Shown here: positions 35,501 through 41,500 of the stretch, in pieces | Numbering within the stretch: the stretch's first letter is position 1 | Layout of the letters: each line of letters begins with the position of its first letter | NCBI RefSeq assembly: GCF_024298765.1 | Contig: NZ_CP101210.1 | Strand: one strand, 5' to 3' | Length of the DNA stretch: 64,000 nt | Origin: Escherichia coli | GTDB lineage: Bacteria; Pseudomonadota; Gammaproteobacteria; Enterobacterales; Enterobacteriaceae | Program-made: the position numbers

Positions 35501-38500
35501 GCCTCAATGGCATCAGACGGATTCATACATGTATTCCCGGTGAAAAAAGACAAAACCCCGCGCACCGGAAAGGTGGCGGGGGATTCACGGAGATAATATC
35601 TGTCTGAAATTATTTAGAATGCACCTGGTGCACTGCAAAGGAAAGGCAATATTCCGTTCCTCCTCCTTGTCGTGAATACCCCAGGTATCTCACAATGTAC
35701 ACCGACTTACTCCGGGGCTGCCTGAACCACAAGATTGCTGTAGAATTGCCCCCAATGATTCAGGTCCAAACCAGGAAAATGGATTAAAAATGACAAGTAT
35801 TCAACAACGAGCAGAACTGCACCGCCAGATATGGCAAATTGCCAATGATGTCAGAGGTTCTGTTGACGGATGGGATTTTAAGCAATACGTTCTGGGCGCG
35901 CTTTTCTACCGTTTTATCAGCGAAAATTTTTCCAGCTATATTGAAGCCGGTGATGACAGTATCTGTTATGCGAAACTGGATGACAGCGTAATTACTGATG
36001 ACATTAAAGACGATGCCATCAAAACTAAAGGCTACTTCATCTACCCCAGTCAGCTTTTCTGCAACGTAGCTGCGAAAGCAAATACCAATGACAGACTGAA
36101 TGCAGATTTAAACAGTATCTTCGTTGCTATCGAAAGTTCTGCTTACGGTTACCCTTCAGAAGCTGACATCAAAGGTTTGTTTGCTGATTTCGATACCACC
36201 AGTAACCGCCTGGGTAACACCGTTAAGGATAAAAATGCCCGCCTGGCTGCGGTTCTGAAAGGGGTTGAAGGGTTAAAACTTGGTGACTTCAACGAACATC
36301 AGATTGACCTGTTCGGCGATGCCTATGAGTTCCTGATTTCTAACTATGCGGCGAATGCTGGTAAGTCAGGCGGCGAGTTTTTTACACCGCAGCACGTCTC
36401 CAGGCTGATTGCACAACTGGCTATGCACGGGCAGACCAGCGTTAACAAAATCTACGACCCGGCAGCAGGTTCCGGTTCGCTGTTGTTGCAGGCTAAAAAA
36501 CAGTTTGATGACCATATCATCGAAGAAGGTTTTTTTGGTCAGGAAATCAACCATACGACCTATAACCTGGCGCGTATGAACATGTTTTTGCACAACATCA
36601 ACTACGACAAGTTTGATATCAAGTTGGGCAATACGCTGACTGAGCCGCACTTCAGAGATGAAAAACCGTTTGATGCCATCGTTTCTAACCCGCCGTATTC
36701 GGTGAAATGGATTGGCAGCGATGACCCGACGCTGATTAACGATGAACGTTTTGCCCCGGCTGGCGTCCTGGCCCCCAAATCCAAAGCTGACTTTGCGTTT
36801 GTACTACATGCGCTGAACTATCTTTCGGCCAAAGGTCGTGCTGCGATTGTCTGCTTCCCGGGTATTTTTTACCGTGGCGGCGCAGAGCAGAAAATCCGTC
36901 AATATCTGGTCGACAATAACTATGTCGAAACCGTGATTTCACTGGCACCGAACCTGTTCTTTGGCACCACCATTGCCGTAAACATTCTGGTGCTGTCTAA
37001 ACATAAAACGGATACCAACGTTCAGTTTATTGACGCCAGCGAACTGTTCAAAAAAGAGACTAACAACAATATCCTGACCGATGCCCATATCGAACAGATT
37101 ATGCAGGTATTTGCCAGCAAGGAAGATGTTGCTCATCTGGCAAAATCTGTCGCGTTCGAAGCCGTTGTCGCGAATGACTATAACCTGTCGGTGAGCAGCT
37201 ATGTGGAAGCGAAAGATAACCGCGAAATTATCAATATTGCTGAACTGAATGCAGAGCTGAAAACCACGGTCAGCAAAATCGACCAGTTGCGTAAAGATAT
37301 TGATGCAATTGTGGCTGAAATTGAAGGCTGCGAGGTGCAGAAATGAGCGAGTTGACTTATCTGGAAAAATTGCTGGATGGGGTTAAGGTTGAGTGGCAAA
37401 CACTAGGGAAAGTGCTTAAACGAACTAAAGGCACAAAAATAACCGCTGGGCAGATGAAAGCTCTTCACAAAGATAATGCGCCGCTTAAAATTTTTGCAGG
37501 AGGGAAAACAGTAGCCTTTGTTGACTTTAAAGATATACCAGAGAAAGATATTAATAGAGAGCCATCGATTATTGTTAAATCCAGAGGTATTATCGAATTC
37601 GAGTATTACGATAAACCATTCTCTCACAAAAATGAGATGTGGTCATATCACTCAAATAATGATGCGATAAGCATAAAGTATATTTATTACTTCCTAAAAA
37701 TAAATGAAGGATATTTCCAGAAAATTGGGGGTAAAATGCAAATGCCACAAATTGCAACTCCTGATACAGATAAGTTTGAAGTTCCAATCCCCTGCCCGGA
37801 TAATCCGGAAAAATCCCTTGCCATCCAGTCTGAAATCGTTCGGATTCTGGATAAGTTTACTGCACTTACCGCTGAGCTTACCGCTGAGCTTAATATGCGT
37901 AAAAAACAATACAACTACTATCGCGACCAGTTACTGAGTTTTGAGGATGGTGAGGTTGAGTGGAAGGCGTTAGGGACTATATGCCAAATTGGCGATGGCA
38001 ATCACTCATCAAAGTATCCTAAGGCGAATGAAATGATTGAGCAGGGGATACCCTTCATTCGTGGTACCAATATGGTGAATGGTACAATATGCAATCAAGA
38101 TATGAAGTACATATCTAAAGAAAAACACAATGAACTAAAAAAGGGGCATTTAAAAGCATTTGATGTTTTGATAGCTAATAGGGGAGAGGTTGGGAAGGTA
38201 GCATATGTTCCAGAGGGATATTCTGGATCTAATTTAAACTCCCAGTTAGCATGGCTTAGAGCCAACCCGGAAATTATCATTAATAGATATTTATTTTTCA
38301 TTCTTTGCTCATCAACCATACAGAATAAACTTTCTGGTGAAGGAGGGGCATTACAACAACTTACTATCAAGAACATAAAAAACATTCAGATACCTGTTCC
38401 ATCAATAACCGTTCAGAGCAATATCGTATCTTTTTTGGACAAGTTCGACTCGTTAACCAACTCAATCAGTGAAGGCTTGCCACGTGAAATCGAGTTGCGC

Positions 38501-41500
38501 CAGAAACAATACGAGTACTATCGTGATTTACTGTTCAGTTTCCCAAAACCTGATACTGTCAGTAATTAATTGACCATTGCTACCGACCGGGCCACCTTAA
38601 CACCCGGTCTGTATATAGACTATTTTTTACGCGCCGGAAGTCACTCTTAACGCCCTTCCGGCCCTTGCCAGGCGGCACAAAGGATGCGCTATGACTCATC
38701 AAACACACACCATTGCTGAATCCAATAACTTTATCGTCCTTGATAAGTACATCAAAGCTGAGCAAACAGGCGACAGCTATCAGAGCGAATCGGACCTGGA
38801 ACGGGAACTGATTCAGGACCTGCGAAATCAGGGCTATGAATTTATATCCGTAAAATCTCAGTCAGCGATGCTGGCCAACGTTCGGGAACAGCTTCAGAAC
38901 CTCAATGGTGTGGTGTTTAATGACAGCGAGTGGCGGCGTTTCACGGAGCAGTTTCTGGATAATCCGAGCGATGGCATCCTGGATAAAACCCGTAAAATTC
39001 ATATCGACTACATCTGCGACTTTATTTTTGACGACGGGCGTCTTGAGAACATCTATTTGATAGATAAAAAGAATCTCATGCGCAATAAAGTGCAGATTAT
39101 CCAGCAGTTTGAACAGGCAGGCTCTCATGCTAACCGTTATGACGTCACGATCCTGGTTAATGGTTTACCGCTGGTGCAAATCGAACTAAAAAAACGCGGG
39201 GTGGCGATTCGTGAGGCTTTCAACCAGATACATCGTTACAGTAAAGAGAGTTTTAACAGCGAAAATTCCCTGTTTAAGTATCTGCAACTGTTTGTCATTT
39301 CTAACGGCACCGATACCCGTTACTTTGCCAACACCACAAAGCGCGATAAAAACAGTTTTGACTTCACCATGAACTGGGCGAAATCAGACAACACGCTGAT
39401 TAAAGACCTCAAAGACTTTACCGCTACCTTTTTCCAGAAACATACTCTGCTTAATGTTCTGGTGAACTACAGCGTTTTTGACAGCAGTCAGACGCTACTA
39501 GTGATGCGACCGTACCAGATTGCTGCCACCGAGCGCATTCTGTGGAAAATTAAGAGCTCCTTTACAGCGAAGAACTGGTCAAAACCGGAAAGCGGTGGGT
39601 ATATCTGGCACACTACCGGTTCTGGTAAAACCCTCACCAGCTTTAAAGCCGCGCGTCTGGCAACAGAGCTGGACTTTATTGATAAAGTCTTCTTCGTGGT
39701 CGACAGGAAAGACCTCGATTACCAGACCATGAAGGAATATCAGCGTTTTTCGCCAGACAGCGTCAACGGCTCGGAAAATACCGCAGGCCTTAAACGAAAT
39801 CTGGATAAGGACGATAACAAAATTATCGTCACTACTATTCAGAAACTCAATAACCTGATGAAAGCAGAAAGCGACCTGCCTGTATATAATCAGCAAGTGG
39901 TGTTTATATTTGATGAATGCCACCGCAGCCAGTTTGGAGAAGCGCAGAAAAACCTGAAGAAGAAATTCAAACGCTATTATCAGTTTGGTTTTACCGGCAC
40001 CCCTATTTTCCCGGAAAACGCCTTAGGCTCAGAAACAACCGCCAGCGTATTTGGTCGTGAATTGCATTCGTATGTAATTACCGATGCGATTCGTGACGAA
40101 AAAGTGCTCAAATTCAAGGTGGACTACAACGATGTGCGACCACAGTTTAAGTCTTTAGAGACAGAAACTGACGAGAAAAAACTAAGTGCGGCTGAAAATC
40201 AGCAGGCGTTTCTTCATCCCATGCGTATTCAGGAAATCACGCAATATATTCTGAATAATTTCCGCCAGAAAACCCACCGTACTTTCCCTGGCTCCAAAGG
40301 TTTTAATGCCATGCTGGCAGTAAGCAGCGTGGATGCCGCGAAAGCCTATTACGCGACGTTTAAACGGTTACAAGAGGAAGCCGCTAATAAATCTACTACC
40401 TGTAAACCACTGCGTGTTGCGACAATCTTCTCCTTTGCCGCTAATGAAGAACAAAATGCGATTGGTGAAATATCCGATGAAACTTTTGATACCAGCGCAA
40501 TGGACAGCAGTGCTAAAGAGTTTCTTGACGCTGCAATTCGTGAGTATAACAGCTATTTTAAAACTAACTTCAGCACCGACAGTAAGGGTTTTCAGAACTA
40601 CTATCGTGATTTAGCCCAACGGGTTAAAAATCAGGATATCGATCTGTTAATTGTCGTGGGGATGTTTTTAACCGGTTTCGATGCTCCAACATTGAACACG
40701 CTATTCGTCGATAAAAACTTGCGTTTTCACGGCCTGATGCAGGCATTTTCCCGCACCAACCGTATTTATGATGCAACTAAAACCTTCGGTAATATCGTCA
40801 CTTTCCGCGATCTGGAACGCTCAACCATCGATGCCATAACGCTGTTTGGTGACAAAAACACCAAAAATGTAGTGTTAGAAAAGAGTTATGCAGAGTATAT
40901 GGAAGGCTTTACTGATGCTGCTACTGGTGAAGCTAAGCGCGGCTTTATGGCAGTAGTTGCAGAACTGGAACAACGGTTCCCTGACCCTGCCAGTATTGAA
41001 AGTGAAAAAGAGAAGAAAGACTTCGTTAAACTGTTTGGTGAATACCTGCGTGCCGAGAACATCCTGCAAAACTATGATGAATTTGCCACGCTGAAAGCCC
41101 TGCAACAAATCGATCTTAGCGATCCTGTTGCAGTAGAAAAATTCAAAGCAGAACATTATGTGGATGATGAAAAGCTCGCTGAATTGCAAACAATTCGTCT
41201 CCCTGCTGATCGCAAGATTCAGGATTATCGTTCTGCCTATAACGATATTCGCGACTGGCAGCGCCGTGAGAAAGAAGCTGAGAAAAAAGAGAAATCAACC
41301 ACTGACTGGGATGACGTAGTTTTTGAGGTCGATTTGCTGAAATCTCAGGAAATAAACCTGGATTATATCCTTGGTCTGATTTTCGAGCACAACAGACAAA
41401 ACAAAGGTAAGAGCGAAATGATCGAAGAGGTCAAACGCTTAATTCGTTCAAGCCTGGGGAACCGTGCTAAAGAGGGCCTGGTGGTCGATTTTATTCAGCA

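Follow-up and report, generated by a model that had tools for sequence, protein, structure and literature searches.

A type IC hsdS gene with a two-copy TAEL repeat on an Escherichia coli chromosomal island, and its natural copy-number and domain variants

The specificity of a type I restriction-modification system governs which incoming DNA is accepted by a strain and which sites are methylated by it. For the type IC systems EcoR124I and EcoR124II, the relationship between the number of copies of a short repeat in the specificity gene hsdS and the length of the target spacer was established in the 1980s. In this study, we analysed a 64,000-nucleotide stretch of an Escherichia coli chromosome (contig NZ_CP101210.1 of assembly GCF_024298765.1; hereafter the window), in which a repeat of this kind lies in an hsdS gene flanked by hsdM and hsdR. 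The original prediction for this locus held that hsdS belongs to a type IC system, that it carries an EcoR124-type repeat of variable copy number, that its target-recognition domains (TRDs) have been shuffled and that its specificity is likely to be variable. The genes and the domain layout of HsdS are described here together with natural variants of the repeat and of the TRDs, and alternative explanations are weighed against the available evidence.

The hsd operon and the architecture of HsdS

The three genes follow one another on the same strand in the order hsdM-hsdS-hsdR (Table 1), each as a full-length open reading frame (ORF) without a frameshift. The stop codon of hsdM and the start codon of hsdS overlap in the sequence ATGA (37343-37346), and a gap of 121 bp separates hsdS from hsdR. 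The order hsdM-hsdS-hsdR, with hsdR set apart from hsdS, is a trait of the type IC family. The product of the ORF at 37343-38569 (+) is an HsdS of 408 amino acids that aligns over its full length with EcoR124 HsdS (7bst_A, E = 4e-84) and matches the Pfam family Methylase_S (PF01420). The kinship of HsdM and HsdR to the prototype proteins, the gene order and the domain layout of HsdS are all those of a type IC system. The assignment of hsdS to type IC is borne out by an HsdM that is 99% identical to that of EcoR124, by an end-to-end match of HsdR and by the gene order. Because all three subunits match their EcoR124 counterparts, and because the M-S-R order and the ATGA overlap are kept, the locus is, judged by its sequence, an intact type IC (EcoR124-family) operon, best described as EcoR124 with other TRDs. 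Scans for promoters and terminators around the operon gave scores no better than those of shuffled sequence, and no prrC-like anticodon nuclease gene lies between the hsd genes of the window.

The TRD boundaries in HsdS were taken from the alignment to EcoR124 HsdS (7bst_A). Three conserved blocks (amino acids 1-20, 146-205 and 360-408) are nearly identical to those of EcoR124, and the two TRDs that they enclose have both diverged. The central and C-terminal conserved regions contain the helices D1 and D2, respectively. The segment running from LDKF to YYRD, counted from the translation, comprises 19 amino acids in D1 and 23 in D2. D1 with two repeats thus falls short of D2 by four residues, or one helical turn, and a third repeat would make the two lengths equal. 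This agrees with the published remark that three is the 'optimum' number of repeats (PMC3874165).

Table 1. Features of the hsd operon and of HsdS in the window, and repeat arrays with one unit or more than three units found in other E. coli strains (TRD, target-recognition domain; IS, insertion sequence).
Feature	Position	Strand	Description
hsdM	35790-37346	+	518 aa, methyltransferase subunit; 513/518 identical to EcoR124 HsdM 7bst_D, 1150 bits
hsdS	37343-38569	+	408 aa, type IC specificity subunit; 7bst_A match and PF01420
hsdR	38691-41807	+	1038 aa, restriction/translocase subunit; 2265 bits over 1-1038 to EcoR124 HsdR 2w00_A
HsdS N-terminal conserved region (part of helix D2)	37343-37402	+	aa 1-20; near-identical to EcoR124 HsdS; 90-96% DNA identity in other alleles
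TRD1, exchangeable cassette	37403-37777	+	aa 21-145, 34.4% GC; diverged from EcoR124 TRD1
HsdS central conserved region (helix D1)	37778-37957	+	45.0% GC; aa ~146-200 identical to EcoR124 HsdS
12-bp tandem repeat CTTACCGCTGAG	37865-37892	+	two perfect copies 37865-37888 plus 4 bp; 2.3 copies, 100% match (Tandem Repeats Finder)
TRD2, exchangeable cassette	37958-38419	+	aa 206-359, 37.7% GC
HsdS C-terminal conserved region (helix D2)	38420-38569	+	near-identical to EcoR124
Locus with an array of 1 unit, E. coli 98210 plasmid	L013:2030-3289		hsdMSR apparently intact
Array of 4 units, ETEC1701 plasmid	L010:2585-2632		hsdS disrupted by IS3
Array of 5 units, ETEC1718 chromosome	L007:3082-3141		hsdS truncated by IS3
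Array of 8 units, strain 33-6 chromosome	L012:2582-2677		IS1 in hsdS, hsdM truncated

The TAEL array and its copy number among strains

The unit CTTACCGCTGAG is also the DNA unit of EcoR124 hsdS, as can be read from the mutagenesis primers in PMC10644984. The two perfect in-frame copies encoding TAELTAEL that had been read by eye are present in the sequence and are recovered by Tandem Repeats Finder. The array lies in frame 1 of hsdS, and in the TAEL register its units occupy 37868-37879 and 37880-37891. An imperfect third copy had also been noted upstream; it corresponds to a degenerate unit, ACT GCA CTT (37859-37867), which encodes TAL and lacks the Glu codon, and the same degenerate unit precedes the array in EcoR124 HsdS. 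Since perfect tandem duplications with a period of 9-30 occur just twice in the whole window, and since the hsdS repeat is conserved throughout the family, its presence is not a matter of chance.

The copy number of this repeat differs among natural strains. The hsdS gene of E. coli MB06102 is identical to the window gene at 1227 of 1227 bases and contains one additional 12-bp unit. It resides on the same island and is accompanied by an HsdM with the same protein accession; outside hsdS, two single-nucleotide polymorphisms (SNPs) separate the loci in hsdM, and a further 49 are concentrated in the 3' half of hsdR (40139-41777), where they look like a recombination patch. A second allele, which combines the window TRD2 with another TRD1, has two units in ET210 and NT1F25 and three in ES6 and ET151, and the sequences of ET210 and ES6 are identical over 6786 bases (6.8 kb) apart from 12 bp. 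Likewise, FDAARGOS_1259 (two units) and CNR20191027 (three units) differ by two mismatches across 3.2 kb, and of two sister plasmids, that of ETEC4073 has three units and that of ETEC1701 has four. The proposal that hsdS carries an EcoR124-type repeat of variable copy number is thus upheld by natural pairs that differ by one unit (the window and MB06102, ET210 and ES6, and FDAARGOS_1259 and CNR20191027).

The distribution of copy numbers cannot be read from the 120 best protein homologues, among which 116 have two copies as a result of ranking bias. DNA searches with synthetic one-, three- and four-copy queries and a spread sample of 60 from the 1357 E. coli records containing the hsdS central region were used in their place. 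Two units were found in 29 members of the sample, three in 27 and five in one, the remaining three being uninformative. Full-length matches to the window hsdS in complete E. coli genomes have two copies in five of six cases. The exact two-copy HsdS protein (P0001) occurs on 89 contigs, and a collection of 15 billion proteins contains no exact one-, three-, four- or five-copy version of it. The three-copy version of the window allele was recovered from one genome, and only when RefSeq E. coli genomes were searched at the DNA level. Every array of more than three units that was encountered belongs to a system disrupted by an insertion sequence (IS), at three independent loci (Table 1), which is suggestive of expansion of the array once selection on the system has been lost. 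In the DNA search, the match in strain 58-3 spanned 246 bp, as did that in strain 33-6.

The units themselves vary in a further respect. Three synonymous versions, CTTACCGCTGAG, CTTACAGCAGAG and CTGACAGCAGAG, occur in the central regions of different alleles (L017, L018, L019 and L020). Each version is perfectly uniform inside an allele, and each is found both at two and at three copies. Uniformity of the DNA unit within alleles points to continuing duplication and deletion and not to conservation at the protein level alone, and indicates that the units of the array are subject to concerted evolution.

Exchange of recognition domains and the surrounding island

Among the 120 best HsdS homologues, the window TRD1 (98-100% amino-acid identity) is paired with 22 C-terminal TRD clusters and the window TRD2 (99-100% amino-acid identity) with 13 N-terminal TRD clusters. 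TRD1 is also found in the second position, in P0086, P0100, P0110 and others. A group of symmetric HsdS proteins of 415 amino acids (P0010-P0019, of which P0011 is present on 40 contigs) carries the window TRD1 in both positions at 98-100% identity, with the N-terminal conserved motif YLEKLLDGVKVEW ahead of the second copy; the predicted target of these proteins should be a palindromic bipartite site. At the DNA level, a Klebsiella IncFIB plasmid shares 98.9% identity with the window in TRD1, 82.9% in hsdM and 85.3% in hsdR, and ET210 shares 100% identity in TRD2 together with the C-terminal region and ~97% in hsdM and hsdR. Homology between hsdS alleles breaks at the borders of the conserved regions. 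In view of this mosaic identity, the many combinations of TRD partners and the position of the breaks, domain shuffling is, on sequence evidence, real.

This conclusion had been anticipated on the premise of a markedly higher AT content in TRD2 than in TRD1, and the premise does not hold. The GC content of TRD2 (37.7%) is not below that of TRD1 (34.4%), and the range first taken for TRD2 (38000-38400) has 35.9% GC, exactly as the mirror range 37400-37800 does. The compositional contrast between the two domains was rejected as an argument for shuffling. Both TRDs are AT-richer than the central conserved region, hsdM (46.1% GC), hsdR (43.9%) and the whole window (48.4%).

The operon is part of a chromosomal integrative island of the CP4 type in E. 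coli, on which an integrase gene is followed by genes for CbtA/YeeU, an antirestriction protein, Ag43 and a GTPase, then by hsdMSR and ISKpn26. Over the locus the window is ~99.96% identical to strains 13P460A and 2020CK-00188; elsewhere it is a mosaic of the two. The IS21 insertion present in 13P460A is absent from it, the Ag43/JAB sequence deleted in 2020CK-00188 is retained, and the segment 16482-24123 has no match in the stretches compared from these two strains, so that the window stems from a third strain. The antirestriction gene (29715-30200, - strand; PF03230) is of the KlcA/ArdB type, a type of inhibitor of type I enzymes, and lies ~6 kb upstream of the type IC system. ISKpn26 (IS5 family; 41955-42935, - strand) lies 148 bp past the hsdR stop codon, adjoins a truncated gluconate permease gene and delimits the island on the right.

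Several features of the window lie apart from the operon. An autotransporter of the SPATE type, with Peptidase_S6 and autotransporter beta-domains, is split into two overlapping ORFs (18431-19927 and 19830-22562, + strand) and has probably become a pseudogene by frameshift; it is followed by a MarR-family gene (22688-23212). A pair of GmrSD-N/DUF262 proteins is encoded at 55464-56918 and 56911-58953 (+), the second also with GmrSD_C, and the pair resembles a restriction module of type IV, which is modification-dependent. With the remnant of an N6-methylase (about 53.8-54.6 kb) and IS fragments close by, the region has the appearance of a defence island. An iteron-like cluster at 60296-60448 (+) contains six copies of AACTACA and several of GACTACA, on one strand only, and includes a perfect 11-bp tandem (AAACTACAGAT x2) at 60301; an ORF of 128 amino acids (60510-60896) is found downstream. 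AACTACA matches 14 times in the window, compared with 6.1 expected.

Proposed mechanism, alternatives and known systems

We consider it probable, at about 0.88, that the locus contains a type IC hsdS gene in which the copy number of the repeat sets the spacing of the target and in which changes in units and TRDs vary specificity between strains. The two TRDs would be kept at a distance from each other by an antiparallel coiled coil of two helices, D1 in the centre and D2 at the C-terminus, and it is D1 that carries the in-frame 12-bp unit for Thr-Ala-Glu-Leu, in two copies in the window allele. The dependence of spacer length on copy number is drawn from the literature by analogy. EcoR124I has two TAEL repeats and recognizes GAAN6RTCG, with 7 bp between the methylated adenines, and EcoR124II has three repeats and recognizes GAAN7RTCG, with 8 bp between them (PMC3874165; PMC12707154). 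By analogy with EcoR124I, two copies in the window allele would specify a bipartite target with methylated adenines 7 bp apart, typically with an N6 spacer. By analogy with EcoR124II, the three copies of MB06102 would extend this distance to 8 bp (N7) and leave the half-sites unchanged, so that MB06102 is predicted to recognize the same half-sites one base further apart. The number of units could shift through slipped mispairing or through unequal exchange of identical units, and the data are compatible with both. Separately, recombination in the conserved regions would swap whole TRD cassettes among alleles, and the two processes together would generate new specificities between strains.

Several observations weigh against this reading. 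An array of only two units is a poor substrate for slippage. On the window allele copy-number change is rare and is not a fast phase switch, since the two-copy form is present on 89 contigs and other copy numbers are absent from the protein collection. The half-sites and the N6 spacer of the window allele are themselves predictions, and each copy-number change may be either a gain or a loss. The expression and activity of the operon in this strain are not guaranteed, given the antirestriction gene (PF03230) on the island and the IS5-family element just downstream of hsdR. The expectation that specificity is variable is upheld: one-unit allele pairs and TRD mosaics support variation between strains, and this variation is demonstrated across strains, not inside a culture.

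The rarity of change on the window allele also lends weight to the view that the repeat is a fixed structural part of the coiled-coil spacer, with a stable two-copy state and a specificity that is effectively invariant in the lineage. We regard this as doubtful, while treating it as a serious possibility. It accounts for the occurrence of only the two-copy form of the protein in the collection, for the predominance of two copies in complete-genome matches and for the fact that the array has only two units and that intact genes almost always have two or three. Against it stand MB06102, in which an otherwise identical gene has three units, a one-unit difference in at least two other backgrounds, and the homogenisation of units in synonymous variants, which argues for continuing turnover; it contests, moreover, only the tempo of change and leaves the mechanism untouched. 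The differences in copy number could instead be artefacts of assembly or sequencing, considering that MB06102 is represented by a single assembly and that short tandem repeats are prone to mis-assembly. This is very improbable: the differences are always exact in-frame multiples of 12 bp, three units occur at ~45% of the sampled loci, ES6 and ET151 independently share the same three-copy allele, RefSeq contains separate proteins for each copy form, and the two- and three-copy states have been established experimentally for EcoR124I and EcoR124II (PMC3874165).

A different question is whether the system operates at all. It might be carried along by the island in a silent or decaying state, in which the repeat has no current functional effect, as could be supposed from its surroundings, with ISKpn26 close behind hsdR, IS1 and IS3 nearby and an antirestriction gene in the same island, and from the frequency of IS-disrupted relatives. 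We consider this unlikely in the face of full-length hsdM, hsdS and hsdR genes, an HsdM sharing 99% identity with its active EcoR124 counterpart, an HsdR that matches end to end, an intact hsdS and a preserved hsdM-hsdS coupling. Finally, specificity might vary through an invertible shufflon of multiple hsdS genes instead of through repeat number, and a tyrosine recombinase gene is indeed present in the island (24315-25670). This enzyme is, however, the integrase of the island and is encoded 12 kb from hsdS, and searches of the 64-kb window with blastn and tblastn found neither a further copy or fragment of hsdS nor an inverted repeat of it; the probability of a shufflon is practically negligible. 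Both a shufflon and phase variation through a long simple-sequence tract were rejected as candidates, there being no extra hsdS in the window and an array of only two units.

A broader proposal, to which we attach somewhat less than even odds, is that the TAEL array is a selection-bounded mutable tract in natural E. coli. It would undergo recurrent one-unit toggling between N6 and N7 on many chromosomal and plasmid backgrounds, together with homogenisation of its units, with intact systems held at two or three units (rarely one) and drift to four to eight after inactivation by IS elements. If this is true, the array would reveal, in nature, the range of lengths over which the coiled coil of a type I enzyme can function. 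The survey shows spacer toggling and TRD exchange to be common on chromosomes and plasmids of E. coli and Klebsiella.

The phenomenon is a textbook one, and the feature is ordinary and well understood. What is new is modest: an uncharacterised combination of TRDs with a natural pair of two- and three-copy alleles on it, and a picture of the family in which two- and three-copy forms have nearly equal frequencies, units are homogenised and expanded arrays lie in dead genes. The literature consulted makes no mention of strain 13P460A, and a paper on Klebsiella type I systems contains no type IC motifs. The pair formed by the window allele and MB06102 makes the rule of one helical turn per base pair testable beyond the EcoR124 plasmid, by comparison of 13P460A-type strains with MB06102.

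Among known systems, NgoAV of Neisseria gonorrhoeae, a type IC system with LEAT repeats, shares with the window system a natural strain-to-strain variation in the number of a tetra-amino-acid repeat, which in NgoAV is tied to recognition of GACN6TGC or GACN7TGC (PMC6789123). It differs in genus and in repeat sequence, and truncation of HsdS by a frameshift is a further source of variation in NgoAV, whereas hsdS of the window is full length. EcoDXXI (TCAN7RTTC) and EcoPrrI (CCAN7RTGC) have the same family architecture as the window system, with three repeats in place of the two in the window allele and, like EcoR124II, 8 bp between the methylated adenines (PMC3874165; PMC12707154). Hybrids between EcoR124I and EcoDXXI have shown experimentally that TRD cassettes are exchangeable via recombination in the conserved regions (PMC3874165). 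The closest relatives are EcoR124I and EcoR124II of plasmid R124, the type IC prototype, which resemble the window system in HsdM (99% identity), in HsdR along its whole length, in the conserved regions of HsdS, in the 12-bp unit and in the protein sequence around the repeat. They differ in being encoded on a plasmid and not on a chromosomal CP4-type island, and in their TRDs for GAA and RTCG, which are unrelated to those of the window; because neither TRD is related, the half-sites of the window system would be expected to differ from those of EcoR124. In copy number, the window allele is in the state of EcoR124I and its three-copy sister in MB06102 mirrors EcoR124II. Current understanding is unchanged, and the paradigm of the 1980s is extended to an uncharacterised allele.

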